The notes: generated from the letters alone by a model not told the origin. Counted from the first letter of the stretch, positions 1,090 to 18,114 are shown. The stretch is DNA of 45,889 bases from a virus (IMGVR_UViG_2576861104_000010); one strand, 5' to 3'. Numbers and translations are program-made.

Positions 1090-1155
1090 GATATATATTT
1101 TGTTTATCGCGAATCACATTTTTTCACTTCAGTATCTGTGTGCTATACTCCTTCT

Positions 1156-1222
1156 TGATTGATTGGATGCGGAATACAAACCCGCTCTTTTGTGCAGCCT
1201 GGCTCCTTGCCAGGCTTTTTTT
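1156..1222 (+). ncRNA. Candidate small RNA: extended -10 promoter then hairpin plus T-run terminator
   Basis: TGcTATACT extended -10 at 1141-1149; stem GCCTGGC/GCCAGGC at 1197-1215 followed by seven T at 1216-1222; no plus-strand gene upstream. Contains GATTGATTGGAT at 1157-1168. Confidence 0.3.
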
Positions 1223-1532
1223 ATTTCATCATGGAAGCTGTTAACGCTTTGGATCTTGCTGAACTGATTGAAAGGGCATTGTTTACCTTACCCAGGAGTT
1301 CGCCAAATTCCACCATCACTCTAGTAAGCCCGCGCCGCGCTTCCTCCTCCGTTGCATTCATCACAAAATGTTCAGCACTCCGCATGCTTTTAACGGGGAA
1401 CGCAACAGATATCGAGTCGATATCAGGCATCCTATCGCTCAACTTTACGGTGACAATGACAGATGGTGACTGAATTTGAGAGCTTACAGACAGCACCACA
1501 TATTTTCCGTCTATTTTGAAATCCTTCCGCAT
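1221..1532 (-). CDS. Hypothetical protein between cre and ref, 103 aa
   Basis: ATG-initiated ORF in the same orientation as cre and ref, with a C1 operator 17-33 bp upstream of its start. A plus-strand ORF (1159..1473, TTG start) overlaps it; which strand is coding is unresolved. Confidence 0.35.
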   Translation of the reverse strand: MRKDFKIDGKYVVLSVSSQIQSPSVIVTVKLSDRMPDIDSISVAFPVKSMRSAEHFVMNATEEEARRGLTRVMVEFGELLGKVNNALSISSARSKALTASMMK

Positions 1533-1548
1533 GCGTCACCATAAATAT

Positions 1549-1565
1549 CAAATAATTAGAGCAAT
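1549..1565 (-). promoter_or_regulatory. C1 operator-like site
   Basis: Reverse complement ATTGCTCTAATTATTTG, close to the C1 operator consensus. Confidence 0.6.
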
Positions 1566-1582
1566 CAAGCGCAAATGAACGG

Positions 1583-2614
1583 CTAATCGCCATCTTCCAG
1601 CAGGCGCACCATTGCCCCCGTTTCACTATCCAGGTTACGAATGTAGTTCATGACAATATTTACGTTGGTCCAGCCACCAGCTTGCATGATCTCCGGTATT
1701 GAAACTCCGGCGCGGGCCATATCTCGCGCGGCTCCGACACGGGCACTGTGTCCAGACCAGGCCAGGTATCTCTGCCCAGAGTCATCCTTAGCGCCGTAAA
1801 TCAATCGATGAGTTGCTTCAAAAATCCCTTCCAGAGCGCGAGTTGATAGCTGGCTGGTGGCAGATGGCGCGGCAACACCATTTTTTCTGACACGGCAAAA
1901 CAGGTAGTTATTCGGATCATCAGCCACACCAGAGACAGAGATCCATCGCTCGACCAGTTTAGTTACCCCCAGGCTAAGTGCCTTCTCTACACCTGCGGTG
2001 CTAACCAGCGTTTTCGTTCTGCCAATATGGATTAACATTCTCCCACCGTCAGTACGTGAGATATCTTTAACCCTGATCCTGGCAATTTCGGCTATACGTA
2101 ACAGGGTGTTATAAGCAATCCCCAGAAATGCCAGATTCCGTATATCCTGGCAGCGATCGCTATTTTCCATGAGTGAACGAACCTGGTCGAAATCAGTGCG
2201 TTCGAACGCCAATGCCTGTTTTGCACGTTCACCGGCATCAACGTTTTCTTTTCGAATCCGCCGCATGACCAGTGAAACAGCATTACTGTCACTTGGTCGT
2301 GGCAGCCCGGACCGACGATGAAGCATGTTTAGCTGGCCCAAATGTTGCTGGATAGTTTTTACTGCCAGACCGCGCGCCTGAAGATATAGAAGATAATCGC
2401 GAACATCTTCAGGTTCTGCGGGAAACCATTTCCGGTTATTCAACTTGCACCATGCCGCCCACGACCGGCAAACGGACAGAAGCATTTTCCAGGTATGCTC
2501 AGAAAACGCCTGGCGATCCCTGAACATGTCCATCAGGTTCTTGCGAACCTCATCACTCGTTGCATCGACCGGTAATGCAGGCAAATTTTGGTGTACGGTC
2601 AGTAAATTGGACAT
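1583..2614 (-). CDS. cre: Cre site-specific tyrosine recombinase, 343 aa
   Basis: Protein MSNLLTVHQNLPALPVDATSDEVRKNLMDMFRDRQAFSEHTWKMLLSVCRSWAAWCKLNNRKWFPAEPEDVRDYLLYLQARGLAVKTIQQHLGQLNMLHRRSGLPRPSDSNAVSLVMRRIRKENVDAGERAKQALAFERTDFDQVRSLMENSDRCQDIRNLAFLGIAYNTLLRIAEIARIRVKDISRTDGGRMLIHIGRTKTLVSTAGVEKALSLGVTKLVERWISVSGVADDPNNYLFCRVRKNGVAAPSATSQLSTRALEGIFEATHRLIYGAKDDSGQRYLAWSGHSARVGAARDMARAGVSIPEIMQAGGWTNVNIVMNYIRNLDSETGAMVRLLEDGD is recognisably P1 Cre; loxP lies about 420 bp upstream. Confidence 0.97.
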   Translation of the reverse strand: MSNLLTVHQNLPALPVDATSDEVRKNLMDMFRDRQAFSEHTWKMLLSVCRSWAAWCKLNNRKWFPAEPEDVRDYLLYLQARGLAVKTIQQHLGQLNMLHRRSGLPRPSDSNAVSLVMRRIRKENVDAGERAKQALAFERTDFDQVRSLMENSDRCQDIRNLAFLGIAYNTLLRIAEIARIRVKDISRTDGGRMLIHIGRTKTLVSTAGVEKALSLGVTKLVERWISVSGVADDPNNYLFCRVRKNGVAAPSATSQLSTRALEGIFEATHRLIYGAKDDSGQRYLAWSGHSARVGAARDMARAGVSIPEIMQAGGWTNVNIVMNYIRNLDSETGAMVRLLEDGD

Positions 2615-2621
2615 TTAACAC

Positions 2622-2843
2622 TCAGATAATGGTTTTAAGTAAAGTGTACAGGATCGGCTCTGCCTTTACCTGTTTATGGTTCTCGTCATAGAAACGCCAG
2701 CGACCGCGCGTGCGTTCTATTTTCTCTTCACCGCGCGATAATGACAGTTGGCAACTATCACGATCAAACCCTTTTGCCCGCCAGTAACCACGGTTTTTCT
2801 CAAGCTCAAGATGAGTGGACACTTTAGCAGTTGAATATCCCAT
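2622..2843 (-). CDS. cra: Small cre-associated protein, 73 aa
   Basis: ORF immediately upstream of and co-oriented with cre, between loxP and cre, start preceded by AGAGGTG; symbol is from recalled P1 annotation. Confidence 0.5.
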   Translation of the reverse strand: MGYSTAKVSTHLELEKNRGYWRAKGFDRDSCQLSLSRGEEKIERTRGRWRFYDENHKQVKAEPILYTLLKTII

Positions 2844-3032
2844 TTTTCACCTCTGATTGATTGGTGGTGCTAAGTGCGCTACGCGAAATCTGTAGGACTA
2901 ACACCGCCAATTTTTCACAGATTTTACGTAGCGCAACCTTGATCAAATGATCAAGTGATCACTATTTGACCTGCCAAGGTATTGAACTGTATGGATTTAC
3001 AGGTAAATTGATCATATTCAATAACCCTTAAT

Positions 3033-3066
3033 ATAACTTCGTATAATGTATGCTATACGAAGTTAT
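3033..3066 (+). other. loxP recombination site (34 bp)
   Basis: Exact ATAACTTCGTATA-ATGTATGC-TATACGAAGTTAT: two 13-bp inverted arms around an 8-bp spacer. Confidence 0.97.
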
Positions 3067-3109
3067 TAGGTCTGATGAGGAGTTTACGTCCAGCCGTGTA
3101 GAAAAATCA

Positions 3110-3126
3110 AGAATTATTAGAGCAAT
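3110..3126 (-). promoter_or_regulatory. C1 operator-like site (ImmC region)
   Basis: Reverse complement ATTGCTCTAATAATTCT. Confidence 0.6.
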
Positions 3127-3193
3127 AAAAAATTGAGAGTAAAATCCCACTCCACCAGCCAAATACTGGATTGTTTTTCATAGTCGTTTGGCA

Positions 3194-3210
3194 ATTGCTC
3201 TAATAAATTA
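3194..3210 (+). promoter_or_regulatory. C1 operator (ImmC region, upstream of coi)
   Basis: ATTGCTCTAATAAATTA, one mismatch to consensus. Confidence 0.7.
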
Positions 3211-3448
3211 TAGTTTTGCCGCCGTTTCGTAATACGACTTTGGACTCACTACTTAATGTGTCTTCAGCGTTGTAGAGCGGCTCAGAAGGAAATGAGCAAA
3301 CAGGGAAACCTTATACAACGGCATTACCGCTATGCATTGCTCATCTTACACACAGCGCAATGTTGATAGATAACCCCAGCATGGAACATGGGTGAAACAG
3401 TAGGTCAGAGCTTCAGGCTCTGTGTTGTCAATACAGTGAGGCATAATT

Positions 3449-3658
3449 ATGGCTTTCATTCCACCAACCATCGACGATGTTAGACATTGCTCTAACGCTT
3501 TATCTGTAGACCCCGCCGAAACCGACGCTGCTCGCGCCATTGCTGAACACTACTCAAAGATATCCAATCAGGAGTACCGCATCACCCAAGACGACCTGGA
3601 TGATCTCACTGACACAATCGAATATCTCATGGCCACTAACCAGCCAGACTCACAATAA
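3449..3658 (+). CDS. coi: Coi, C1 inactivator, 69 aa
   Basis: 69-aa ORF directly upstream of c1 in the same orientation, as in the P1 ImmC region. Confidence 0.8.
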   Translation: MAFIPPTIDDVRHCSNALSVDPAETDAARAIAEHYSKISNQEYRITQDDLDDLTDTIEYLMATNQPDSQ

Positions 3659-3768
3659 ATGCACTAATAAATCTATTATTTTCGTTGGATCCTTTTATAA
3701 TGGTGGCCAACAACTCTCAGTGTCATCCGCTGTGAGCTGTTGGCCATGTCAATTCTGGAGGAGGATCA

Positions 3769-4620
3769 ATGATAAATTATGTCTACGGCGAACAACTGTA
3801 CCAGGAGTTCGTCAACTTCAGGGATCTCTTTCTAAAAAAAGCTGTTGCACGCGCCCAACACGTTGATGCCGCCAGCGACGGTCGTCCTGTTCGCCCGGTT
3901 GTCGTTCTGCCGTTCAAAGAAACGGACAGCATTCAGGCTGAAATTGATAAATGGACTTTAATGGCGCGGGAACTGGAACAGTACCCAGACCTCAATATCC
4001 CAAAGACTATTTTATATCCAGTGCCTAACATCCTTCGCGGTGTGCGTAAGGTTACGACTTATCAGACAGAAGCTGTGAACAGCGTCAACATGACCGCTGG
4101 CCGCATTATTCATCTGATTGATAAGGACATTCGCATTCAAAAAAGCGCGGGGATCAATGAGCACAGTGCGAAATACATAGAGAACCTGGAAGCAACAAAA
4201 GAGCTAATGAAGCAGTACCCGGAGGATGAAAAATTCCGTATGCGCGTACACGGCTTTAGCGAAACAATGCTGCGCGTGCATTACATTTCCAGTAGCCCTA
4301 ACTACAATGATGGTAAATCAGTTAGTTACCATGTGCCGCTATGTGGTGTGTTTATCTGCGATGAAACTCTCCGTGATGGAATCATCATCAACGGTGAATT
4401 CGAGAAAGCAAAATTTAGCCTTTATGACTCTATAGAACCGATCATCTGCGACCGCTGGCCGCAGGCAAAAATATATCGCCTGGCAGATATTGAAAATGTA
4501 AAAAAACAAATTGCCATCACTCGCGAAGAGAAAAAGGTCAAATCAGCCGCATCAGTTACGCGCAGCCGTAAAACTAAGAAGGGGCAGCCAGTAAACGACA
4601 ACCCCGAAAGCGCGCAATAG
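3769..4620 (+). CDS. c1: C1 repressor of lysis, 283 aa
   Basis: Protein MINYVYGEQLYQEFVNFRDLFLKKAVARAQHVDAASDGRPVRPVVVLPFKETDSIQAEIDKWTLMARELEQYPDLNIPKTILYPVPNILRGVRKVTTYQTEAVNSVNMTAGRIIHLIDKDIRIQKSAGINEHSAKYIENLEATKELMKQYPEDEKFRMRVHGFSETMLRVHYISSSPNYNDGKSVSYHVPLCGVFICDETLRDGIIINGEFEKAKFSLYDSIEPIICDRWPQAKIYRLADIENVKKQIAITREEKKVKSAASVTRSRKTKKGQPVNDNPESAQ is recognisably P1 C1 (283 aa); many cognate operators are present in the window. Confidence 0.95.
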   Translation: MINYVYGEQLYQEFVNFRDLFLKKAVARAQHVDAASDGRPVRPVVVLPFKETDSIQAEIDKWTLMARELEQYPDLNIPKTILYPVPNILRGVRKVTTYQTEAVNSVNMTAGRIIHLIDKDIRIQKSAGINEHSAKYIENLEATKELMKQYPEDEKFRMRVHGFSETMLRVHYISSSPNYNDGKSVSYHVPLCGVFICDETLRDGIIINGEFEKAKFSLYDSIEPIICDRWPQAKIYRLADIENVKKQIAITREEKKVKSAASVTRSRKTKKGQPVNDNPESAQ

Positions 4621-4644
4621 TTTCTATCCGGCATGGTCAATGAG

Positions 4645-6129
4645 TTATTCATTAAGCCATGCCAGAGCTTCATCAACCTGCGCTTCGTCTTCGACGCTAA
4701 GCACTTCATCCTGGGGAACATAATCCGCCAGCATAGCGAAACAATATGTATCCCAATGGTCTGGTGAGTGCAGGTTGAGTTTTTTCTTCATATCCTCCTT
4801 ACTCATCACCTTCCATTGACCTGCGGAGTTAATCCCTACAGGGATTTTCGACGCTTCCTCAATAGTTTCATTACCCTTATCCAGTCTCATACGACCAGAT
4901 TTTACGGCCTCTGCGGCTTGAACGTTGGCATAAGCACGTTTATCAAAGTACAGGCTCTTATCTTCACGGCTATGCATCTTTTTACCCCAGCGTATACGCT
5001 GTACGGTAATACCATAATACTCGTACATCAGATCCGCCGTTGCTTTACCCAGGCCATCGCCGTCTATCGCTATGGTGATATTTGGGAATCGCTCAGGATT
5101 ACATTCTGCGAAAATTTTGGCGGCAAGCTGCGTTTCTGTAACGTCTGTGTATTCCAGCATTCGATAGTTGATTACACGGCGTTTATTTCGCTGGCCGGAC
5201 ACCATCATGATATTGATAACGGACTTATCCCGTCCCGTACCACCAGCAACGTCCACACATGCAAGCCAGCCCCATCCTTTTGCAATCTTGACTTTCCGCC
5301 GCGTTGCACGTTCAACCTCATCACGTCCAAGAAGGAAGCCATCCTGTGATTTAGGGAATAGGCCGCGTACCTTAATCATGTACATAGGGTTATCACGCCC
5401 GCCGTACTCCGCCAGCTTCATTTTGATAAATGCTGGCGTTACCAGCGGTGATTCCTCACTGTTAAGCGTGATCGCCGTATAAACGCCATCAGGGTTACCA
5501 GGACGCTTGGCCAGTTTATGGTGAGTATCGTAGAAATAGCCGCTTGGGCGTGTAGGCTGTGACAGTAATAAGATGCGGTTATCCTGTCCGGTAAGAGCAC
5601 CGGTGATGATACCGAAAGCTCTATCACTGACACCGGAGGCTTCATCGATAATATACAGAAGATGATCTGCGTGTTCACCGGCGAGAGCTTCTTCACTTCC
5701 CAGACGAAAGCCCTTCGGTACTACAGTCCATACACCTTTACCAGTAACCTCATAGAAAGCGGTTTCTGTCAGAACAAAATAATCAGCAAGCCATGGAAAA
5801 CGGCTGGTGGCAGTAGCCCAGTTTATCTTGATGTACTTGAATATACCGGTCATTACCTGCTGAATTTTGTTCGCAACGATAATGGCGCGGGCACCGGGAT
5901 ACATGATTATGAACAACATGATCATGATAGAAGTCATGTCTGATTTCCCGGTACCGTGACCAGACGAAACAGATGTCTTGCTACCCTGTTCCTGCACAGA
6001 CTCAATAATCAGATCCTGCTGCCAGGTAGGTGTTTTGCCGAACAAAACATCAGCGGCCGCAATCCAGTCATAACGATATAGCGCCACCAGCTCGCGCCAA
6101 CGTGGATCCGTTACGCAACTTCTGGCCAT
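4645..6129 (-). CDS. pacB: PacB, terminase large subunit, 494 aa
   Basis: 494-aa ORF immediately downstream of pacA, size and position as in P1. Confidence 0.85.
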
Positions 6130-7322
6130 TAATCATCATCCCCGTATAGCTTGCGGGTAACTTCTTCGTCTTCCTCCTCGTCTTCGTCCAGGTCTTGTTC
6201 CAGCCATGGGTCGTTTGATACACCTTCAGTATCAACATCTCCATAACCGCCAGTATCAACGATATCGGCGATTTCTTCCCTGCGCTGCTCAATCCACAAT
6301 GCGGCATCGGCGCGGCGGTTGGCGGCCCGTTCTCGCGCAACTTTGTCCAGATCTTCAAGAGAAGGGCCACCGACGGCTGTTTGCCTTTCCTCATCATCGG
6401 TATTGGTCTTAGGAGCACGCAGATCGGCTTTGATTTGCTCCAGCATCAGGGGCGGAACTTTCCCGCCATGCGCCTCGATGAATTCAGCTGCTTCCAGCAC
6501 TGACCAGTTATTTTCACGCTTTCGTTCGTATGCCAGCTTAACAATGCCAGCTTGCCCCATAGACAAAGCGTGCTTTTCCGCCTCCCGGCTTTCTTTTCGA
6601 TAGTTATTCCGGATGCTGTAAATGGTGTTGATCAGGCTGCTTATCTGCGCGGAACAGCTGTTTAGCATGCTCGCGATACGGTATTCAGGCGGAGTACCTT
6701 CATCATCGTCTTTTTGCTGATCGCGCATTTCCTGCACCAGGTGAATACACGTATCCCTGGCATTCTCCAGCATAAGGAGATGAGAAAGAGACTTTTCCAG
6801 AAGAGTGGTTTCCAGAACATCGGCCCCGGACCGACGCAACATAGCGCGCGCGGCCTTCCGCGCTTCAACGTTATCTATCAGGTAATCGCCAGCTTCGAAT
6901 TCAAAGCGTTCACCATCATCATCCAGGGTGTCGCGTTCCAGGCGATCACGTAAGGTACGGTGGGCGCGGGTGATCACGTCATGATCATCAGAACGATCAT
7001 TTATGCGCTTATTTTGGCGCTTAGCGTTCTCGACTGCGGCACTGACAACAGCATTAACTCTTTGTTTTTCAGCCATTTCAGCCACAATGTGATCACCTGC
7101 ACGTTGATCATTAGCGTGATCAATGATCATGCTTTTTAGTGGTTTCCTGACAGGCTTATTTGGCCTACGGCTGTCCGCTGTTCCGGTGTCTTCTTTGAAT
7201 GCACGGAGATAACGACGTGCGGTGTTTGGGTTGAGATTAAACTCGGCGGCATATTGTGCGATGGTGTAACCACCATCTCGCGCCAGGCGAGCAAAATTCT
7301 TTTTGTGATCGTCCCAGGTCAC
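6129..7322 (-). CDS. pacA: PacA, terminase small subunit, 397 aa
   Basis: 397-aa ORF containing two clusters of GATC hexamers typical of the P1 pac site; acidic C-terminus. Confidence 0.85.
6943..7130 (-). other. pac packaging site inside pacA
   Basis: Four hexamers (cGATCAc, tGATCAc, tGATCAt, cGATCAt) at 6943-6996 and four more at 7089-7130, separated by about 95 bp; P1 pac is a Dam-regulated site built of TGATCA/G hexamers. Confidence 0.65.
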
Positions 7323-7359
7323 TTATGCTTCCTTTCGTATAAAACTCTTTTTGACGCGA

Positions 7360-7380
7360 GGGTAACGAAAGTCACATGTC
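7360..7380 (-). promoter_or_regulatory. Candidate Lpa-dependent late promoter for pacA
   Basis: Minus strand reads ACATGTGACTTT-cgt-TACCCT about 40 nt upstream of pacA; the same TGACT-N5-TANNNT arrangement recurs before two other late operons. Confidence 0.4.
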
Positions 7381-7408
7381 AAAAGGCCCGGAACGGGCAA
7401 GCAATCAA

Positions 7409-7861
7409 TCAGATACGTGCGGATGTGGCATTACCGTAATGACGGTGCTGACGGACCACCTTATTGAAAAGTTGACGCGCCATCACCCAAGGCTGGTGCT
7501 CCCGGCGTTCCTTTTCGTCCTGCGTCATATAGAGTTCGTTCTGGAGTTTTTCATCAAACCGGCGCGGAGCGCGGCTGCGGCGAAAGAATTCAGGATTCAG
7601 AGAGTGGATCTGAAATCTACGTGGGCGTGTACTGTCATCAATCAAAACAGACGAATACTTAGACACAGCGATAGCCTTTAAGCGCAGATAAACATCGCGC
7701 TTATCGACATCCAGATGCGGGTATTCCTTTTCAAGAATTGCTGCGAGTTCTTTCGCTGATAGAAGAGATTTAGTGCGGATCATGTAATCCGCAATCTCGT
7801 ACGATGTTATTCGTGAGTGATTTATTTCCATGAAGTGGCGTCCCTGCCAGTTAAGTAACAT
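7409..7861 (-). CDS. lpa: Lpa, late promoter activator, 150 aa
   Basis: 150-aa ORF directly upstream of pacA with a C1 operator upstream; position and size as P1 lpa (gene 10). Confidence 0.7.
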   Translation of the reverse strand: MLLNWQGRHFMEINHSRITSYEIADYMIRTKSLLSAKELAAILEKEYPHLDVDKRDVYLRLKAIAVSKYSSVLIDDSTRPRRFQIHSLNPEFFRRSRAPRRFDEKLQNELYMTQDEKERREHQPWVMARQLFNKVVRQHRHYGNATSARI

Positions 7862-7931
7862 CCTGTCACCTACTGATTAGCCCATGTCAACTAATCAACG
7901 TCGAATATAATACCCTCGATTAAAGAAATAG

Positions 7932-7948
7932 CAATACATTAGAGCAAT
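7932..7948 (-). promoter_or_regulatory. C1 operator-like site upstream of lpa
   Basis: Reverse complement ATTGCTCTAATGTATTG. Confidence 0.55.
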
Positions 7949-7949
7949 T

Positions 7950-8993
7950 TTATCTAACAATCGACGAATGACTTGTGATAGCGCCGACTCCAAGCGCGTA
8001 ATCAAAGAACAATCGTTGATGCATCGCCAGCCTACCGTGCGTCTTCTCCCAATTATCGCGGTCACGCTCAATATCACGCTGGCATGACTGGCACAGAGGA
8101 ATAGCATAAATGTCATGCGCGCATAATCGACTATGACGAACGATATAAGGCGTAATGTGAGCGCCAGCTCCCGCAGCTCCACAGCCACAGCATGGACGGG
8201 AAGCCACAAAATCCATGTACTCGGGCAATTTTAGCGATTGAAGTTTTGGTATCTTGAAATGCGCCATACCTGGGTCGGAGTCAACATCCACAGGGCATAC
8301 TTTTGCACGCATCGGCGCGGCGCGTTCTTCCATCATCTGAACATATGCTGTAGCGCGATCGTCATACGGGCGAATATCCGCCTCTTTCAGAGGTCCGCTA
8401 TCCTGCGGAGTAGCCTTCATCTTATTTATTGATATGCGGCAAACTTCTTCCGGCATCAGGTGCATCATGTTGCGCATGAAAGCCCACCAGCACAGTTCCT
8501 GAATACTTAAATCATGGCCATCTGAAAGCCCCATTTCCTGACGGGCGACATCCAGTATCCAGTTAACGCGATTATTATGCAGCGTTTCTTTCAGCTCATT
8601 AAAACCACGCATCCGGTAATGGTTATCGTGATGCCAGCACAACAACACCGCGCTATTGTCTCGTTCTGCGTGGACAATATGGTTGTCACACCAGCTACGA
8701 TCTGCGGCCTGGCATTGCCCCTCTTTCCTGCGCAACCACGCCACCAGCGAGTCAATTCCACCAATACGGCGAAACAGTTCATCGCTGTTAAAAAACGGCT
8801 GCAACGCCTCATTTGTTGCCATAGTTTGCTCGGAAACAACGAGGCCGTCGTCCATGTGCTCGATTAACTCACGTGGCACCGGCTCCATAATAAATTTACG
8901 GCCAGCCTCCACCAGCTTTCTGACCTCCTGATCCACTTTGAACGTGGCGAGGCCAAGTTCTTTCTGTACAAAGGGAGTAATTACGGCTTTCAC
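7950..8993 (-). CDS. Hypothetical post-doc protein (pdc-like by position), 347 aa, with a Cys/His-rich C-terminal segment
   Basis: ORF between the doc-side small gene and lpa; C-terminal [12 protein letters not shown]...[18 protein letters not shown] could be a zinc-binding or HNH-like module; function not assignable. Confidence 0.5.
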
Positions 8994-9020
8994 ATCACAC
9001 CTTTAATCACTGATTGGGCT

Positions 9021-9200
9021 TTATATGCTGCCCGGCATTCTCTGTTTAAGCACAACCATTTCCTGACGGCATAACACAGCAATAGCGGTCCTGGCACCAA
9101 TTTGCTTACCAGCCAGGTATTGCTTTACCTCGCGGCGACTCACGCCATCAAGAAGCATCTTTAACGCTTCACGGGACAATTTGTTGTATTTACGTGCCAT
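9021..9200 (-). CDS. Small basic post-doc protein, 59 aa from Met at 9200
   Basis: GGAG ribosome-binding site then ATG 4 nt after the doc stop; helix-turn-helix-like composition. Confidence 0.4.
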   Translation of the reverse strand: MARKYNKLSREALKMLLDGVSRREVKQYLAGKQIGARTAIAVLCRQEMVVLKQRMPGSI

Positions 9201-9204
9201 TAAT

Positions 9205-9585
9205 CTACTCCGCAGAACCATACAATCTACGTAACGTGTCGGCGACAGAAGATACAGATATCTCTCCGGTCGCAGCCCCTACGGTAAGGTCTGCCAGTTC
9301 AGGTGAATCAAATACCTGCACCCCGTTACGGCGTAGAAATAACAGCGCACTGTTTAGCGCGGTACGCTTATTGGCATCATTGAATATATGCCCTCTCGCT
9401 GTAGCCACCAGGTAGGTGGCGGAGACTTCGAAAAGGTCGGTGATCTCTTCGTAGGCAACTCTGGCCTGAACTCTCCCGATAATGGCCTCTGCCCTACCCG
9501 GATCTGACATGCCCGGCAGGCCGCCGTAGCGGTTTATATTCGCATCATGAAGCGCAATAAGTTCTTCCGGTGATATATGCCTCAT
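9205..9585 (-). CDS. doc: Doc toxin (Fic-fold kinase), 126 aa
   Basis: Protein [25 protein letters not shown]...[23 protein letters not shown] is recognisably P1 Doc; translationally coupled to phd. Confidence 0.95.
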
Positions 9586-9806
9586 TATCGGTTAACCAGT
9601 TCCTTGTTGGTGGAGTCCAGGGTGTCAAACAGGGATGCAAATTCAGCATCCAGCGCCGCTTTTTTGTAGGCTTCGAAAGTAGCCTTGCTGACAATTACTG
9701 CTGGCTCACGGCCTCTGCGGGTGATTTCAACCTCTTCCCCGGCCTCAACATTGTTGAGCACTTCAGAAAGGTTGCCGCGCGCGGTACGGAAGTTAATGGA
9801 TTGCAT
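9585..9806 (-). CDS. phd: Phd antitoxin, 73 aa
   Basis: [73 protein letters not shown] from the Met at 9806; stop overlaps the doc start. Confidence 0.95.
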
Positions 9807-9813
9807 AAACACC

Positions 9814-9839
9814 TCGTGTACTCGTTATGTGTACACAAT
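9814..9839 (-). promoter_or_regulatory. phd/doc operator palindromes
   Basis: GTGTAC and GTGTACAC palindromic repeats immediately upstream of the phd start, as expected for Phd/Doc autoregulation. Confidence 0.5.
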
Positions 9840-9982
9840 TATAAACTTCACAGGCATAAAGCACCAGCACTTTGCGGCTTAACAAACCTCTAGGCAGGTC
9901 ATTCGTAGCCTAATGTCCGAACTGCTAAAGCATCCAAGTTGCTGTAGAATCACATCCAATTACATAAGCCTGAAATAAGTGG

Positions 9983-11545
9983 ATGAAAATGACAAGTATT
10001 CAACAACGTGCAGAGCTTCATCGTCAAATCTGGCAAATTGCTAACGATGTCAGGGGTTCGGTCGATGGATGGGATTTTAAGCAATACGTTCTGGGCGCAC
10101 TTTTCTACCGTTTTATCAGCGAAAATTTTTCCAGCTATATTGAAGCCGGTGATGACAGTATCTGTTATGCGAAACTGGATGACAGCGTAATTACTGATGA
10201 CATTAAAGACGATGCCATCAAAACCAAAGGCTACTTCATCTACCCAAGTCAGCTTTTCTGCAACGTAGCTGCGAAAGCAAATACTAATGACAGACTGAAT
10301 GCAGATTTAAACAGCATCTTCGTTGCTATCGAAAGTTCTGCTTACGGTTACCCTTCAGAAGCTGACATCAAAGGTTTGTTTGCTGATTTCGATACCACCA
10401 GTAACCGCCTGGGTAACACCGTTAAGGATAAAAATACCCGCCTGGCCGCGGTTCTGAAAGGGGTTGAAGGATTAAAACTTGGCGACTTCAACGAACATCA
10501 GATTGACCTGTTCGGCGATGCCTATGAGTTCCTGATTTCTAACTATGCGGCGAATGCCGGTAAGTCCGGCGGCGAGTTCTTTACACCGCAGCACGTCTCT
10601 AAGCTGATTGCACAACTGGCAATGCACGGCCAGACCCACGTTAACAAAATCTACGACCCGGCAGCAGGTTCCGGTTCGCTGTTATTGCAGGCTAAAAAGC
10701 AGTTTGATGACCACATCATCGAAGAAGGTTTTTTTGGTCAGGAGATCAACCATACGACCTATAACCTGGCGCGTATGAACATGTTTTTGCACAACATCAA
10801 CTACGACAAGTTTGATATCAAGCTGGGCAATACGCTGACTGAGCCGCACTTCAGAGATGAAAAACCGTTTGATGCCATCGTTTCTAACCCGCCGTATTCG
10901 GTGAAATGGATTGGCAGCGATGACCCGACGCTGATTAACGATGAACGTTTTGCCCCGGCTGGCGTTCTGGCCCCCAAATCCAAAGCTGACTTTGCGTTTG
11001 TATTACATGCGCTGAACTATCTTTCTGCCAAAGGTCGTGCTGCGATTGTCTGCTTCCCGGGCATTTTTTACCGTGGCGGCGCGGAGCAGAAAATCCGTCA
11101 GTATCTGGTTGACAATAACTATGTCGAAACCGTGATTTCACTCGCACCGAACCTGTTCTTTGGCACCACCATTGCCGTAAATATTCTGGTGCTGTCTAAA
11201 CATAAAACGGATACCAAAGTTCAGTTTATTGATGCCAGCGAACTGTTCAAAAAAGAGACTAACAACAACATTCTGACCGATGCCCATATCGAAAAAATTA
11301 TGCAGGTATTTTCCAGCAAAGAAGATGTTGCCCATCTGGCAAAATCTGTCGCGTTTGAGGCCGTTGTCGCGAATGACTATAACCTGTCAGTGAGCAGCTA
11401 TGTAGAAGTGAAAGATAACCGCGAAACTATCGATATTGCTGAGCTAAATGCTGAGCTGAAAACCACGGTCAGCAAAATCGACCAGTTGCGTAAAGATATT
11501 GATGCGATTGTGGCTGAAATTGAAGGCTGCGAGGTGCAGAAATGA
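9983..11545 (+). CDS. hsdM: Type I R-M methyltransferase subunit HsdM, 520 aa
   Basis: N6-adenine methyltransferase NPPY motif (IVSNPPYS), AdoMet-binding ([10 protein letters not shown]); 520 aa as in EcoR124-type HsdM; stop overlaps the hsdS start. Confidence 0.9.
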
Positions 11546-12771
11546 GCGAGTTGAGTTATCTGGAAAAATTGCTGGATGGGGTTGAGGTTGAGTGGGTACC
11601 TGTATCAGAACTATTTCAAATTAAAAATGGGTATACACCTTCAAAATCCAAGAAAGAATTTTGGGAGAATGGAACCATTCCATGGTTCAGACTAGAAGAT
11701 GTCAGAGTCAATGGTAGGGAATTAAATGATTCTATCCAACACATAAATCCATTAGGAGTTAAAGGTTGTCTGTTCCCGAAAAACTCTATTTTCATGTCTA
11801 CAACAGCTACCATTGGGGAGTATGCTTTAGTAAGGGTCCCTTATTTAACAAATCAACAAATCACAAACTTTTCCATTTCTGAAAAATTCAGTGAAGCGGT
11901 CAATATAAAATATATTTTTTATAGGTTTTATGATTTCGGCAAGTGGTGTACGGAGAATGCTAATAAAAGTGGTGGAGTATCTATAATTGGACTCAAAAAA
12001 CTGTCTCAATATCAGTTCCCAATCCCTTGCCCGGATAATCCGGAAAAATCCCTTGCCATCCAGTCTGAAATCGTTCGGATTCTGGATAAATTTACTGCAC
12101 TTACCGCTGAGCTTACCGCTGAGCTTAACATGCGTAAAAAACAGTACAACTACTATCGTGACCAGTTGTTGAGGTTTAAAGAGGGTGAGGTTGAGTGGAA
12201 GGCATTGGATGATGTTTTTGACATTGTTGCAGGCGGCGATGCACCAAAAGATGCCTTATCCGAATTTGAGACCGAGGAATTCAGCATCCCCGTTTTATCA
12301 AACGGTATAGGTAATAAATCACTATATGGATGGACTGACAGAGCCAAGATTGAGAAACCGAGTCTCACCATATCTGCAAGAGGTACTATTGGATGGACTA
12401 GCTATAGAAGTAGACCATTCTTTCCGATAGTGCGACTGCTGGTCTTGACGCCAAAAATTAAATTAAACTTGAAGTACGCTTATTACTTCATGAAAACCAT
12501 TGAGAATAATTACAAAATCCCTGAGGCAGGCATACCCCAGCTAACTAAACCGATGCTCAAAGACATTAAAATCCCCTTCCCATGCCCCGGTAATCCGGAG
12601 GAATCTTATAACGAACAAGCCAGAATCGCAGCGACTCTCGACAAATTTGACGTCTTAACAAATTCGATTACCGAAGGTCTTCCGCGTGAAATCGAGTTGC
12701 GCCAGAAACAATACGAGTACTATCGTGATTTACTGTTCAGTTTCCCAAAACCCAAAACTGTCAGTAATTAA
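11542..12771 (+). CDS. hsdS: Type I R-M specificity subunit HsdS, 409 aa
   Basis: Two target-recognition domains separated by a conserved central region ([24 protein letters not shown]) with a matching C-terminal repeat ([18 protein letters not shown]); ATGA overlap with hsdM. Confidence 0.85.
12103..12126 (+). repeat. Two tandem copies of a 12-bp repeat (ACCGCTGAGCTT) in the hsdS central conserved region
   Basis: Read directly; encodes TAEL-TAEL. In EcoR124I versus EcoR124II the copy number of this repeat sets the spacer length of the recognition site. Confidence 0.8.
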
Positions 12772-12892
12772 TTGACCATTGCTACAGACCGGCTCACCTT
12801 AACATCCGGTCAGTATATAGACTATTTTTTACACGCCGGAAGTCACTCTTAACTCCCTTCCGGCCCTTGCCAGACGGCACAAAGGATGCGCT

Positions 12893-15800
12893 ATGACTCA
12901 TCAGACACACACCATTGCTGAATCCAATAACTTTATCGTTCTTGATAAGTACATCAAAGCTGAGCAAACAGGCGACAGCTATCAGAGCGAATCGGACCTG
13001 GAACGTGAACTGATTCAGGACCTACAAAATCAGGGCTATGAATTTATAGCCGTAAAATCTCAGTCAGCGATGCTGGCCAATGCTCGGGAACAGCTTCAGA
13101 GCCTCAATGGTGTGGTGTTTAATGACAGCGAGTGGCGGCGTTTCACGGAGCAGTATCTGGACAACCCGAGCGATGGCATTCTGGATAAGACCCGTAAAAT
13201 CCATATCGACTATATCTGCGACTTTATTTTTGACGACGGGCGTCTTGAGAACATCTATCTGATCGATAAAAAGAATCTCATGCGCAACAAAGTGCAGATT
13301 ATCCAGCAGTTTGAACAGGCAGGTTCTCACGCTAACCGTTATGACGTAACTATCCTGGTTAATGGCTTGCCGCTGGTGCAAATCGAACTGAAAAAACGCG
13401 GCGTGGCGATTCGTGAAGCGTTCAACCAGATACACCGTTACAGCAAAGAGAGTTTTAACAGCGAAAATTCTCTGTTTAAGTATCTGCAACTGTTTGTCAT
13501 TTCCAACGGTACCGATACCCGTTATTTTGCCAACACAACAAAGCGCGATAAAAACAGTTTTGACTTCACCATGAACTGGGCGAAATCAGACAACACGCTG
13601 ATTAAAGACCTCAAAGATTTTACCGCTACCTTTTTCCAGAAACATACTCTGCTGAATGTTCTGGTGAACTACAGCGTGTTTGACAGTAGTCAGACGCTAC
13701 TGGTGATGCGACCGTACCAGATTGCAGCTACCGAACGAATTTTATGGAAAATCAACAGCTCCTATAAAGCGAAAAACTGGTCTAACCCCGAAAGCGGTGG
13801 CTTTATCTGGCACACCACTGGTTCCGGTAAAACACTGACCAGCTTTAAAGCCGCGCGTCTGGCAACAGAACTGGACTTTATTGATAAAGTCTTCTTCGTG
13901 GTCGACAGGAAAGACCTCGATTACCAGACCATGAAGGAATATCAGCGTTTTTCGCCAGATAGTGTTAACGGCTCGGAAAATACAGCAGGTCTTAAACGAA
14001 ATCTGGATAAGGACGATAACAAAATTATCGTCACCACTATTCAGAAACTTAATAACCTGATGAAAGCAGAAAGCGACCTGCCTGTATACAATCAGCAAGT
14101 GGTGTTTATATTTGATGAATGCCACCGCAGCCAGTTTGGAGAAGCGCAGAAAAACCTGAAGAAGAAATTCAAACGCTATTATCAGTTTGGTTTTACCGGC
14201 ACACCTATTTTCCCGGAAAACGCCTTAGGCTCAGAAACGACCGCCAGCGTATTTGGTCGTGAATTGCATTCGTATGTAATTACCGATGCGATTCGTGATG
14301 AAAAAGTGCTCAAATTCAAGGTGGACTACAACGATGTGCGGCCACAGTTTAAGTCTTTAGAGACAGAAACTGACGAGAAAAAACTGAGTGCGGCTGAAAA
14401 TCAGCAGGCGTTTCTTCATCCCATGCGTATTCAGGAAATCACGCAATATATTCTGAATAACTTCCGCCAGAAAACCCACCGTACCTTCCCTGGCTCAAAA
14501 GGTTTTAATGCTATGTTGGCAGTGAGCAGCGTGGATGCTGCAAAAGCCTATTACGCGACGTTTAAACGGTTACAAGAGGAAGCAGCTAATAAATCGGCCA
14601 CCTATAAACCGCTGCATATTGCGACAATCTTCTCCTTTGCTGCCAATGAAGAACAAAATGCCATTGGTGAAATTTCCGATGAAACTTTTGATACCAGCGC
14701 AATGGACAGCAGTGCTAAAGAGTTTCTTGATGCTGCAATTCGTGAGTATAACAGCTATTTTAAAACTAACTTCAGCACCGACAGTAACGGTTTTCAGAAC
14801 TACTATCGTGATTTAGCCCAACGGGTTAAAAATCAGGATATCGATCTGTTAATTGTCGTGGGGATGTTTTTAACTGGCTTCGATGCTCCAACATTGAACA
14901 CGCTATTCGTCGATAAAAACCTGCGTTTTCACGGCCTGATGCAGGCATTTTCCCGCACCAACCGTATTTATGATGCAACTAAAACCTTCGGTAATATCGT
15001 CACTTTCCGGGATCTGGAACGCTCAACTATTGATGCCATAACGCTGTTTGGTGACAAAAACACCAAAAATGTGGTTTTAGAAAAGAGTTATGCAGAGTAT
15101 ATGGAAGGCTTTACTGATGCTGCCACTGGTGAAGCTAAGCGCGGCTTTATGGCAGTAGTTTCAGAACTGGAACAACGGTTCCCTGACCCTGCCAGTATTG
15201 AAAGTGAAAAAGAGAAGAAAGACTTCGTTAAACTGTTTGGTGAATACCTGCGTGCCGAGAACATCCTGCAAAACTATGATGAATTTGCCACGCTGAAAGC
15301 CCTGCAACAAATCGATCTTAGCGATCCTGTTGCGGTAGAAAAATTCAAAGAAGAACATTATGTGGATGATGAAAAGTTCGCTGAATTGCAAACGATTCGT
15401 CTCCCTGCTGAACGCAAGATTCAGGATTATCGTTCTGCCTATAACGATATTCGTGACTGGCTGCGCCGTGAGAAAGAAGCTGAGAAAAAAGAGAAATCAA
15501 CCACTGACTGGGATGACGTAGTTTTTGAGGTCGATTTGCTGAAGTCTCAGGAAATAAACCTGGATTATATCCTTGGACTGATTTTCGAACACAACAGACA
15601 AAATAAAGGCAAGGGCGAAATGATCGAAGAGGTCAAACGCTTAATTCGTTCAAGCCTGGGGAACCGTGCTAAAGAGGGCCTGGTGGTCGATTTTATTCAG
15701 CAAACGAACCTGGATGATTTACCGGACAAAGCCAGCATCATTGACGCATTCTTTACGTTTGCTCAACGCGAACAGCAACGTGAAGCAGAAGCATTGATAA

Positions 15801-16009
15801 AAGAAGAAAATCTCAATGAAGAGGCAGCAAAACGTTATATTCGCACGTCTTTAAAACGCGAATACGCCACCGAAAATGGCACAGAATTAAACGAAACATT
15901 ACCAAAACTTAGTCCGTTGAATCCGCAATATAAAACGAAAAAACAGGCAGTTTTCCAGAAAATAGTCTCGTTTATTGAGAAGTTTAAAGGCGTAGGCGGA
16001 AAAATATAG
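12893..16009 (+). CDS. hsdR: Type I restriction endonuclease subunit HsdR, 1038 aa
   Basis: Helicase motifs (TTGSGKT Walker A, DECHRS motif II) and 1038-aa size typical of type IC HsdR; separate promoter region after hsdS. Confidence 0.9.
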
Positions 16010-16087
16010 CCTAATTCGTGTTTTTCTTGCGGGTTCTTAATTAAACCCGCATGAGACCGTGGGGTTCCAAATGGCTAATATACTCCC

Positions 16088-16174
16088 TTACCCATGCGCG
16101 ACGATGCCGCCAAAAGTGATAGAGAACAGCCAGAAATAGATCGCGGCCATAATGATTTTGAATGCCGTGTTCAT
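16088..16174 (-). CDS. Candidate small hydrophobic peptide, 28 aa (MNTAFKIIMAAIYFWLFSITFGGIVAHG)
   Basis: ATG preceded by AGGAG; overlaps a plus-strand GATTGATTGGAT motif and a hairpin plus T-run; below the ORF-track size cutoff. Could be a type I toxin-like peptide or chance. Confidence 0.3.
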   Translation of the reverse strand: MNTAFKIIMAAIYFWLFSITFGGIVAHG

Positions 16175-16256
16175 ATTTTCAGCTCCTGTGATTGATTGGA
16201 TACATGCCGCGCCTTGCGGCATGTTTTTATTTTCACTTTCTCTGCTTTAAAAAGCA

Positions 16257-16273
16257 AGATTTATTAGAGCAAT
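16257..16273 (-). promoter_or_regulatory. C1 operator-like site at the 3' end of the HAD gene
   Basis: Reverse complement ATTGCTCTAATAAATCT, one mismatch to consensus. Confidence 0.6.
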
Positions 16274-16779
16274 TATTGTTGATGAAGAAGCGCATTTTCG
16301 TACTCTCTGACCATTAACGTAAGCACGCCGTGATGCCTGAAAACACGCGCTACTTCAATCTTATCTTCCAGCGCGAACGCAATTTTACTTAGACCAATTT
16401 TCTTAAGGAGATCAATCTTTGCTGGACCATCATTTCTGTCATCGGTGGCAGGACGCATAGATAGCAAAGGCTCAGCCCCGTTTGTTACGTGCTTACGCAA
16501 CCAGGCTCGTGTTTTATCCCTGGCTATCTCACAGCGCCCGGTTACAAACCAGAGCGTGTAAATGCAGGACAACTGGCGCACCATATCAATAACTGGAGTT
16601 ATGGGTGTATCGGTGTCACAGGCGAGATTAAACTCGTTCCAGTCCTTTGTTAATGCACCTTTGCCTGGTGGCGGAAGCAAATGCAGCCTGTCTTCAGTTG
16701 CTTCTGATATTGTTCCATCAATATCGACTACGACGATGTACGGACGTTCCAGGTGTGCCTGTTTGTTGAAAATACTCAA
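16273..16779 (-). CDS. HAD-superfamily phosphatase-like protein, 168 aa
   Basis: Motif I VVVDIDGT (DxDGT), motif II-like WFVTGR, acidic motif ATDDRNDG; small HAD phosphatase fold, substrate unknown. Confidence 0.6.
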   Translation of the reverse strand: MSIFNKQAHLERPYIVVVDIDGTISEATEDRLHLLPPPGKGALTKDWNEFNLACDTDTPITPVIDMVRQLSCIYTLWFVTGRCEIARDKTRAWLRKHVTNGAEPLLSMRPATDDRNDGPAKIDLLKKIGLSKIAFALEDKIEVARVFRHHGVLTLMVREYENALLHQQ

Positions 16780-16851
16780 ATGCCCTCCTCATTGGACGAA
16801 AAAAATGCTGGTGGGTGCACTCCACCAGCATTAAAAGTGACACTGTAACTA

Positions 16852-18114
16852 TCAGCGAACGTAAATAGTACCGCCGTTCTCTTTTTCCCATGCATCGCTA
16901 CGTGCATAGCAAACATCGAGAAGTCTTCTTGCCGCTGTTTCCTCTAAACCCAATTCGACAACCAACTGCTCATGACGGCGGGTAACCACATCAAACAGGG
17001 TATGCAGCCCTTTAGCTGCCAGATCATCAATAAATTCCGGTTCGAACGGCAGCTCTGCCTCTGCCAACATAACCTCTTGCGCCCACTCAACTCGACGGAC
17101 CAGTTCCGGGCGGCGGCTTTCCATCTCTTTACAGATCAATTCATGGAAGAACTCTACCCAACCTTCCGGCTGGAACTCGCGGAAAATGGCCAACGGCTGG
17201 AAGTTTGGCATCAACCATTCGTTGATACGGATATCAATGGCATAGCCCATGTCGCAGCAGAACTGATAAGCAAAGTCCAGCTTAGAAACGATATAAGGAC
17301 GCTCGTTATTGAACTCTTTAGGCGATGAGATCCCATAAGCCAGGAGGCGCGGGAAGAATGAGATTTGCCCTAACGTCGGATGAAGTTTGCTTGCAGGGAA
17401 ATGGCGCTCAGTAATGCCATACATTTCCTTCTTGAGCGTCGCAAATTTGGCATTCTCATTAACCAGCGCGGTAACCTCTGCTTTTTTATTAGCAAATGCC
17501 ACGCGCGCTTCGCTTGCATCTTTAATAGTTTTTTTGAGCTGTTGGTTAAGGTCGGCGACCTGTTTACGCAGTTCCTGCCGCTCGCTTTTAGCTTTGTTAT
17601 AGCGTTTCTCAAGGTTAAAAGGATCAAGTTTCATGATCTCTTTATATTGAGATTTTAGCGTTGAAATCTGTGAGTTCCGCAGTTCAACCATCGCGGTCAT
17701 TTCATTGAGTTTTGTTTCCAGCTCAATGCTTATACGTTCGGCATTATCAGCACGCTGGTTGGCGTCATGCGTCGCATCGTCGATCGCGTCCTGTTGCTGG
17801 CGTTTCAAATGTTCAATTTGCAGCTGAAGCTCTTCAATTTCTTTACCCTTCAGACCGAGATCCAACTGCATATTTTCAGCTGCATCTACCAGGGAGTTAT
17901 GGCTATCAGCTTCTGCGTTATAAACATCAATAAGCTGTGCGTGAAGCATCTCCGCTGACTGAACCGCATTATCAAAAAAACGTGCTGTGAGGTCATCACA
18001 ACTAACGCGGCGTTGCGCGGCCCGGATGTTCTGGATAATGGCCGGGATACCGGCATTCAGGACATCAGGGATAGATACATTTTCGATTGATTGGTTTTGT
18101 GCTGAAGTGCTCAT
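16852..18114 (-). CDS. Hypothetical protein with long N-terminal coiled coil and uncharacterised C-terminal domain, 420 aa
   Basis: Heptad-rich, charged residues about 60-230; no Walker or other catalytic motifs seen; first gene product after a C1-operator pair. Confidence 0.55.
   Translation of the reverse strand: MSTSAQNQSIENVSIPDVLNAGIPAIIQNIRAAQRRVSCDDLTARFFDNAVQSAEMLHAQLIDVYNAEADSHNSLVDAAENMQLDLGLKGKEIEELQLQIEHLKRQQQDAIDDATHDANQRADNAERISIELETKLNEMTAMVELRNSQISTLKSQYKEIMKLDPFNLEKRYNKAKSERQELRKQVADLNQQLKKTIKDASEARVAFANKKAEVTALVNENAKFATLKKEMYGITERHFPASKLHPTLGQISFFPRLLAYGISSPKEFNNERPYIVSKLDFAYQFCCDMGYAIDIRINEWLMPNFQPLAIFREFQPEGWVEFFHELICKEMESRRPELVRRVEWAQEVMLAEAELPFEPEFIDDLAAKGLHTLFDVVTRRHEQLVVELGLEETAARRLLDVCYARSDAWEKENGGTIYVR

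Follow-up and report, generated by a model that had tools for sequence, protein, structure and literature searches.

We analysed a 45,889-nucleotide (nt) stretch of viral DNA (IMGVR_UViG_2576861104_000010; hereafter, the window), which is a P1-type phage-plasmid with 97% identity to phage vB_EcoM-673R5 and 95% identity to P1, oriented as the reverse complement of the P1 map. The subject of this study is a 10-mer, GATTGATTGG, together with a predicted small RNA (sRNA) gene of which one copy of the 10-mer appears to form the 5' end. The initial annotation reported four exact plus-strand copies, and all four were confirmed, at 1157-1166, 2855-2864, 16190-16199 and 18085-18094. The first copy lies in a candidate sRNA gene that has c8 on one side and the C1 operator and promoters of ref on the other and is convergent to the cra-cre-c8 operon. 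The features of this locus are as follows.

414-974, minus strand: ref
1121-1149, plus strand: predicted sigma-70 promoter, from a consensus scan
1157-1223, plus strand: predicted sRNA of ~67 nt, made up of seed, stem-loop 1 (1165-1188), U-rich linker and terminator
1157-1166, plus strand: seed GAUUGAUUGG at the predicted sRNA 5' end, the conserved core being the first 9 nt
1196-1223, plus strand: predicted Rho-independent terminator, with an 8-bp stem AGCCTGGC/GCCAGGCT, loop TCCTT and T7
1221-1532, minus strand: c8
1583-2614, minus strand: cre
2622-2843, minus strand: cra (ATG 2843-2841)

The promoter-like site upstream of 1157 consists of a -35-like TTTTCA (1121-1126), a 17-nt spacer and an extended -10 element, TGcTATACT (TG at 1141-1142, hexamer at 1144-1149), with a gap of 7 nt, CCTTCTT, to G1157. 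As the initial annotation had described, the copies at 1157 and 16190 extend to GATTGATTGGAT and are followed on the plus strand by a hairpin with a T-run (1196-1216 plus T7 and 16202-16224 plus T5, respectively). The predicted sRNA terminator begins 30 nt past the motif and overlaps the end of the convergent c8; no plus-strand gene upstream needs a terminator at 1196-1216, as ref, c8 and cre are all on the minus strand. Folding of the 68-nt stretch gave an energy of -23.2 kcal/mol (z = -3.3), which was equalled by none of 200 shuffled sequences; in the predicted structure an unpaired 5' GAUUGAUU is followed by a stem-loop, a linker rich in U and the terminator. The 5' 8 nt were unpaired in both the minimum free energy and the centroid folds. 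There is no conserved open reading frame (ORF) at the locus on either strand, and the Lobocka P1 GenBank record (AF234173) carries no annotation between c8 and P2ref (P1 interval 1830-1956). These observations suggest that the locus is a non-coding transcription unit of its own, with a promoter and a Rho-independent terminator predicted from the sequence, and that a gene for a small non-coding RNA, carried by P1-type phage-plasmids, probably begins at position 1157.

Conservation of the predicted sRNA gene

Divergent lineages were reached with the proteins PacB, Cre and PmgS as queries; a blastn search of plasmids with the sRNA region returned only relatives that were at least 90% identical. 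Five lineages were compared, namely, the P1 type, Pantoea alvi PSNIH6 (L170, identical to L176), L177, L178 (the Salmonella plasmids, e.g., pCFSAN058588) and L340, with Cre of the four further lineages being ~65% identical to P1 Cre. All five carry the sRNA unit after cre, convergent with the last gene there. The shared unit consists of TGnTATAnT, 6 to 7 nt, GATTGATTG(G/T), a hairpin-forming body of 24 to 35 nt, G(U/A)GCAG and a terminator with a U-run. The plus-strand transcript proposed in the initial annotation at 1156-1222 therefore appears well founded, in that a predicted promoter, seed and terminator recur in all five lineages.

Analysis of the variation within the unit showed that its parts have changed to very different extents. 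Across lineages the body between seed and terminator is unrelated in sequence, with the hairpin retained. TGTGnTATAnT is invariant in 12 distinct sequences, in which the spacer and the 6 to 7 nt before the start vary, and the terminator helix is 100% paired in 12 distinct sequences, compared with 11 to 62% in slid controls; two of its pairs show compensatory double changes (UA to CG and CG to GC). Within the P1-type clade the transcribed part is nearly constant, the changes falling in the loop of stem-loop 1, the terminator loop or the linker, or converting a stem G-C to G-U, and the promoter spacer, the -35 element and the 7 nt preceding the start vary freely. When the gene was located by its terminator alone, GATTGATTG was intact in 160/160 locus instances, with only nt 10 varying. 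A pattern of the -10 element and a GAAA-loop terminator only, in which the seed was left unspecified, found 5 contigs, and the seed was identical in all 5. The seed is predicted to be accessible and is better conserved than the rest of the sRNA. Such a constant 5' end, joined to a drifting body and a kept promoter and terminator, reads as the pattern of 5'-seed sRNAs.

A sequence resembling part of the unit was also seen in a Vibrio diabolicus contig (L171, CCKK01000024; PacB 56% identical, no Cre), where, in the interval 7290-7400 on the plus strand, AATTGATTGG lies 6 nt after a TATAGA -10-like hexamer and ~55 nt before a strong terminator; this is probably the end of a gene.

Predicted targets and proposed mechanism

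The three other plus-strand copies read CCAAUCAAUC on the minus strand, which is the sense strand of the adjoining genes. The initial annotation held that the 10-mer is always on the plus strand; this did not hold, as a fifth exact copy was found on the minus strand in the dbn coding sequence. The features concerned are as follows.

2855-2864, minus strand: predicted target 1, CCAAUCAAUC, cra-cre-c8 operon leader
16190-16199, minus strand: predicted target 2, CCAAUCAAUC, 2 nt before the Shine-Dalgarno (SD) sequence AGGAG (16183-16187)
16174-16088, minus strand (P1 AF234173 84073-84159): 28-amino-acid (aa) hydrophobic ORF MNTAFKIIMAAIYFWLFSITFGGIVAHG, with a strong SD, unannotated
16202-16224, both strands: hairpin beside target 2; a 5'-proximal stem-loop on the mRNA strand and, with T5, terminator-like on the plus strand, downstream of convergent hsdR
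16852-18114, minus strand: pmgS (420 aa), ATG at 18114
18085-18094, minus strand: predicted target 3, CCAAUCAAUC, at pmgS +21 to +30
27038-27047, minus strand: fifth copy, an exact match, GAUUGAUUGG on the dbn sense strand, with no translation start nearby
pCFSAN058588 10745-11001 (L255): region with the 50-aa ORF MKDFVIQRHRMARISHDKPTLRQVVTFCAQAFCVSFTLIYILSLIYQHAR, with a hydrophobic C terminus, unannotated

At cra, the motif lies just 5' of the ribosome-binding site, as noted initially (CCAATCAATC-AGAGGTG-AAAA-ATG); it occupies -21 to -12 from the AUG (2843), directly 5' of the SD AGAGGUG. The site is intact in 80/80 P1-type loci, and (G/C)CAAUCAAUC before the SD is kept in four lineages in which the first gene differs (73, 188, 353 or 68 aa). 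Between the leaders of P1 and pCFSAN058588, the motif is identical at 10/10 positions and the flanks at 12/70 and 15/70.

A long inverted repeat was also observed in the cre-operon leader (GCGCTACGTAAAATCTG ... CAGATTTCGCGTAGCGC; window 2865-2935, minus strand; P1 116-185; pCFSAN058588 ~24168-24237). The repeat spans the annotated P3cre promoter, and P1 and the Salmonella lineage have its arms in conserved form but differ in its interior.

The second predicted target lies just 5' of the ribosome-binding site of a small hydrophobic ORF (CCAATCAATC-AC-AGGAG-N8-ATG), again where the initial annotation had placed it. A 44-aa ORF starting inside the hairpin was rejected as the small ORF; the real start is the ATG at 16174 (16174-16172), which gives 28 aa. 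In P1 this ORF stands between the Op88-controlled pmgT promoters and pmgT, its stop 7 nt before the pmgT start, and homologues (MHTVFKLAMAA... and MNTAFKLAMAA...) are found in the same place in divergent lineages; in the window it survives alone beside the hsd insertion. The site, at -25 to -16, is kept as (C/T)CAATCAATC plus 2 nt plus SD in P1, L257, L260 and L261, with diverged flanks. P1 and pCFSAN058588 agree here at 9/10 positions; over the 70-nt flanks, here and at the leader site, they agree at 12 to 22/70. Nucleotides 11 to 15 of the sRNA could lengthen the duplex at this site to 15 bp. Its predicted unpaired probability is 0.79 (0.74 to 0.79 overall for the small-ORF and pmgS sites).

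The initial annotation had also proposed a second plus-strand transcript, at about 16160-16235, which takes in the hairpin at 16202-16224. The interval yielded no promoter-like site, and the Salmonella lineage lacks the antisense T-run, pCFSAN058588 having a hairpin of different sequence at the same position. A second sRNA, or a local antisense RNA, at 16190 is therefore not supported. According to the P1 GenBank notes, the segment with this hairpin also occurs downstream of hsdR in R124/3 and EcoDXXI. In the window it is more likely to serve as a terminator for convergent hsdR, as the stem-loop at the 5' end of the small-ORF mRNA, or as both.

The third predicted target falls, as the initial annotation stated, within the first codons of the 420-aa gene; specifically, it comprises the last base of codon 7 and codons 8 to 10 (Q-S-I) of pmgS. 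This sequence, C-CAA-TCA-ATC, is unchanged, with zero synonymous changes, in the P1, Salmonella (L257), L260 and L261 lineages, across which PmgS is 68 to 75% identical and the codons beside the motif differ. In one lineage the codon before the motif has changed from AAC to AGC, the final C being kept. The predicted unpaired probability of the pmgS site is 0.77. Rare variants were found at all three targets, and two of the three keep pairing through G.U (CCAATCAATT at cra and CTAATCAATC at the small ORF); the pmgS variant, GCAATCAATC, loses only the dispensable tenth pair.

Comparison with relatives, a check proposed with the initial annotation, revealed that the motif and its position are conserved in related phage-plasmids. 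P1 (94.5 kb) contains the same five copies, four of them in the sense-strand set at 186 (cra), 1885 (sRNA locus), 82153 (pmgS) and 84048 (small ORF). pCFSAN058588 (85.8 kb) contains four exact 10-mers, all gene-sense, in the cre leader, in pmgS codons 7 to 10, at the sRNA locus and at the 50-aa ORF. At the four sites that are orthologous between these two elements the motif is identical at 10/10, 10/10, 10/10 and 9/10 positions, amid flanks of near-random identity. The 50-aa ORF of pCFSAN058588 represents an extra predicted target absent from P1, in which a C1-operator-like TTTGCTCTAATAAATTG is followed by a hairpin, the motif and the adjoining SD. In the Pantoea element (21.5 kb) the 9-mer occurs three times, at the sRNA 5' end (seed GAUUGAUUGU) and at two sites that each adjoin an SD: ACAAUCAAUC, a perfect 10-nt complement of the seed, precedes a ParM/StbA-like gene (PF06406, E = 6e-18), and GCAAUCAAUC, in the cre-operon leader, makes a terminal G.U with the seed. 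Complementary sites are thus found at functional positions of mRNAs and are conserved there in relatives.

The fifth copy, in dbn, is present in P1 (73200) and absent from the minus strand of pCFSAN058588, and it probably stands outside the proposed sRNA system. A one-mismatch copy was also noted at 7401-7410 (the plus strand reads GCAATCAATC), at the lpa stop, just before the late promoter LPpac and on the strand opposite to the genes; it recurs in P1 (90123) and other P1-type loci and is probably due to chance.

We hypothesize that transcription would start at or beside G1157 from the extended -10 promoter TGcTATACT and would end near 1223 at the intrinsic terminator, yielding an RNA of ~67 nt. 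The first 9 to 10 nt (GAUUGAUUG[G]), predicted to be single stranded, would act as a seed and would base-pair with CCAAUCAAUC in three or more phage mRNAs, in the cra-cre leader, in the leader of the 28-aa ORF and pmgT, and in pmgS codons 7 to 10. At cra and the small ORF, pairing would lead to translational repression, possibly with RNase E-dependent decay; repression is the most likely outcome because the duplex beside the SD would fall inside the 30S ribosome-binding window. At pmgS, RNase E-dependent decay is more plausible than direct blocking, because the site lies beyond the fifth codon. We consider it fairly likely that the locus encodes a trans-acting sRNA with a 5' seed, which would probably repress the cra-cre, 28-aa ORF-pmgT and pmgS regions. 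The suggestion in the initial annotation of a translation-initiation element targeted by an sRNA is strongly supported by the comparison of lineages, the copy at 1157 being, in this proposal, the predicted sRNA's own 5' end.

The three predicted targets in P1 all belong to operons under C1 control (Op99e, Op88 and Op86), and so the sRNA may be a further, post-transcriptional check on Cre synthesis and on leaky expression of early and morphogenesis genes. The predicted sRNA promoter is free of any overlapping C1 operator (the ref operator, at 1073-1089, is ~30 bp upstream of the -35 element); therefore, the RNA is probably present in lysogens. Because the terminator has no U-tract on the operon strand, read-through cre-operon RNA could carry the full sRNA complement and might titrate the sRNA. 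In a preprint on P1vir in an hfq deletion strain, early over-induction of pmgS and pap was reported, which is weakly consistent with this model. The sequences show the anatomy of the locus, its pattern of conservation and the conserved complementary sites; production of the sRNA, the direction of its regulation, any role of Hfq or ProQ and its physiological purpose are inferred from these. RNAduplex energies were not relied on, as long-range structures add spurious pairs.

A ProQ/FinO-family RNA-binding protein is encoded by pCFSAN058588 (L256 39602-40132; NZ_CP077703.1 84602-85132, minus strand). It is a possible candidate chaperone for plasmid-borne sRNAs like the predicted one.

Several findings weigh against a role of this kind. 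The promoter matches the consensus at 9/12 positions and its -35 element is weak and variable; the predicted duplex, at 9 to 10 bp, is among the shorter ones for regulation by an sRNA. The motif in the cre leader has a predicted unpaired probability of 0.37 to 0.46, and the pmgS site falls outside the first five codons, the window in which the 30S subunit can be blocked directly. Seed-target covariation was sought, but the 9-nt core of the seed is the same in all lineages found, which leaves nothing there to covary. The sole co-change in the seed is at position 10, G to U in Pantoea, where the targets carry A or G; among P1-type variants, nt 10 is U or A in place of G and the targets are unchanged, indicating that this position is dispensable. 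The lineages found are all fairly close relatives, and in Enterobacteriaceae bacterium B14 (L169; Cre 39% identical) no GATTGATTG unit was found after cre. In the hfq deletion preprint cra and cre were under-induced and pmgT was reduced, although the gene-level data are mixed.

Alternative explanations for the 10-mer

The best-surviving alternative to the sRNA is that a protein or the ribosome, instead, recognises CCAAUCAAUC in the mRNA as an operator or enhancer (for example, for a phage translational repressor of the RegA type, or as a standby or enhancer site), in which case the copy at 1157 would be one more sense copy, in read-through cre-operon RNA or RNA from upstream of ref. Such an element would account for a motif that is always in mRNA sense, beside an SD or early in a coding sequence, and conserved there, and that is often preceded by a hairpin; moreover, the sense copy at 1157 in P1 is followed by an SD-like AAGGAG, and one relative encodes a ProQ/FinO-family protein. 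However, no sense-strand start codon or ORF follows the 1157 motif in any lineage, and AAGGAG is not conserved there (GCGAATGAG, GAAGTCAC). What is conserved at 1157 is antisense to such an element, namely, the extended -10 at a fixed 6 to 7 nt and the terminator with its T-run. No candidate binding protein was identified. The best complement to the motif in 16S rRNA is 9/10, at 1015-1024, which 18% of shuffled motifs match or beat, and an rRNA-complementary (epsilon-like) enhancer was rejected as its 16S complementarity is not significant. We consider a protein- or ribosome-read element unlikely.

A DNA site for a phage or host DNA-binding protein that controls transcription seems very unlikely. 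The copies lie downstream of annotated promoters, in leaders between a hairpin and the SD and, once, in codons 7 to 10 of a gene, places where operators or activator sites are not found, and the strand that they occupy strictly follows the direction of transcription. Inspection of the motif showed no fit to the C1 operator or to the consensus sequences of IHF (WATCAANNNNTTR), DnaA and LexA. A DNA site would explain why a repeated, oriented and conserved 10-mer ranks among the most repeated in the window, beside C1 operators, RepA iterons and Chi-containing words, and why all copies are in or near C1-controlled regulatory regions, but it leaves the promoter and terminator around the 1157 copy unexplained.

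The initial annotation argued from copy number that the recurrence was not due to chance. The single-word part of this argument stands: the expectation for GATTGATTGG in the window is 0.20, and at least five copies occurred in 0/100 shuffles, a post-hoc statistic. In order-3 Markov simulations of the window, however, a mean of 7.6 different 10-mers had at least four copies, and 32% of the simulations held some 10-mer with at least five. Copy number alone is therefore not evidence, because simulated windows commonly hold 10-mers at four to five copies; one-mismatch copies are likewise not in excess in the window (8 versus 4.6 expected). Most available relatives are at least 90% identical, and the dbn copy looks like a chance occurrence. 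A chance recurrence kept by common descent among close relatives would nevertheless have to explain the islands of identity at the four orthologous sites of P1 and pCFSAN058588, the absence of synonymous change at pmgS in four lineages, a leader motif kept before non-homologous first genes, and a 21.5-kb Pantoea element in which both 9-mer copies other than that of the sRNA abut an SD. The placement of the motif, beside an SD or at a predicted transcription start, together with its conservation within diverged relatives, is far beyond chance, and we regard chance as even less probable than a DNA site. Least credible of all is the recombination or mobile-element scar suggested initially (target-site duplications, insertion sequence or miniature inverted-repeat transposable element ends, or module junctions), which we reject: the 16190 copy does stand at the junction with an inserted type IC hsd locus, and the P1 GenBank notes record that P1 segments flanking this region match DNA beside the hsd loci of R124/3 and EcoDXXI, but the flanks of the five copies are ~25% identical, with common sequence reaching no more than 2 nt past the 10-mer, the same four sites exist in P1, which has no hsd insertion, and no terminal inverted repeats or paired direct repeats surround mobile DNA.

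Related systems, distribution and genomic context

P1 is a much-studied temperate phage and the source of Cre-lox, and the RNA regulators known from it are C4 and an antisense RNA to kilA. The C4 antisense RNA of P1 and P7 (immI, which represses icd-ant) resembles the predicted sRNA in that it is a small RNA of the same phage, blocks translation by pairing over a short length at a ribosome-binding region and belongs to a C1-related circuit; its pairing sites, a2 and b2, are 7 to 8 nt (annotated in the P1 record). Unlike the predicted sRNA, C4 is processed from its target's own transcript and acts on one neighbouring operon through two loop sequences, whereas the predicted sRNA would be transcribed from a promoter of its own and would use a seed at its 5' terminus to reach three or more targets, dispersed 1.7 to 17 kb away.

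Enterobacterial sRNAs of the RybB, OmrA/B and MicC type have 5' seeds, multiple targets and intrinsic terminators, with a conserved seed and a drifting body, and MicC-ompD provides a precedent for a pairing site within coding sequence. The predicted sRNA differs from these in that a phage-plasmid encodes it and in that it is predicted to target operons of that same element. DicF (Qin) and the P1 dicF-like region (annotated at 68472-68573) are likewise short, phage-borne and trans-acting and pair near ribosome-binding sites. The targets of DicF are, however, host genes such as ftsZ, whereas the conserved predicted targets here are phage genes, and the locus, sequence and seed are different. Type I toxin-antitoxin pairs in which the sRNA has limited complementarity include TisB/IstR-1 and ShoB/OhsC. 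Two of the predicted targets here are, similarly, the ribosome-binding sites of tiny hydrophobic ORFs (28 aa, and 50 aa in pCFSAN058588). A type I toxin-antitoxin system was rejected, as the sRNA is ~15 kb from the small ORF (~12 kb in P1), the complementarity is 10 to 15 nt and the other targets are ordinary genes.

Searches of the whole window against Rfam at gathering thresholds returned two tRNAs only, with no C4 or DicF match. In E-value mode, the intervals 1050-1300 and 16050-16300 gave only sub-threshold generic hits, the best for the sRNA being SorX (22.6 bits versus a gathering score of 46.6). No P1 sRNA with this seed was found in the full-text literature, sequences included, a search that left out most subscription journals, so that a prior description is possible. 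The sRNA gene occurs in 699 PLSDB plasmids and in 615 of 5,426 complete E. coli genomes, where 613 of 622 matching places are on plasmids. On balance, we lean towards an unrecognised P1-family sRNA that co-regulates the Cre, pmgR-pmgS and small-ORF-pmgT operons, together with the ParM-like gene in Pantoea, via an invariant 9-nt seed.

If this is correct, the regulatory map of P1 would change: the cra-cre leader and two morphogenesis operons would come under a conserved sRNA, as a second, post-transcriptional layer of immunity or lysogeny control beside C1 and C4. It would offer a handle on how Cre synthesis is limited in lysogens and would apply to a large phage-plasmid family that spreads resistance genes. 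More speculatively, some phenotypes ascribed to the c8 region might belong to the sRNA, as the terminal part of c8 and the sRNA gene overlap. The prediction is specific enough for testing, in that it gives a start (1157; P1 1894, minus strand), a length (~67 nt), a seed (9 nt) and the names of three targets.

The remaining genes of the region shown are arranged as follows.

Beyond cra, minus strand: pacB, pacA, lpa, pdcB, doc and phd
9983-16009, plus strand: type IC hsdMSR block (hsdM-hsdS-hsdR), between phd/doc and the small ORF

The hsdMSR block stands in place of the P1 humD-to-pmgT segment and is followed, in order, by the small ORF, pap, pmgS and pmgR. A further repeat, AATTTGCAGC, was observed five times, at 17815 (plus strand) and at 20956, 27216, 27858 and 31720 (minus strand), apparently always within coding regions, and may be due to chance. 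Chi (GCTGGTGG) occurs 27 times in the 46 kb of the window, and several inverted pairs of Chi form terminator-like hairpins, among them AATGCTGGTGGAGTGCACCCACCAGCATT plus a T-run between pmgS and pap (16804-16832) and a pair at 22803/22824.

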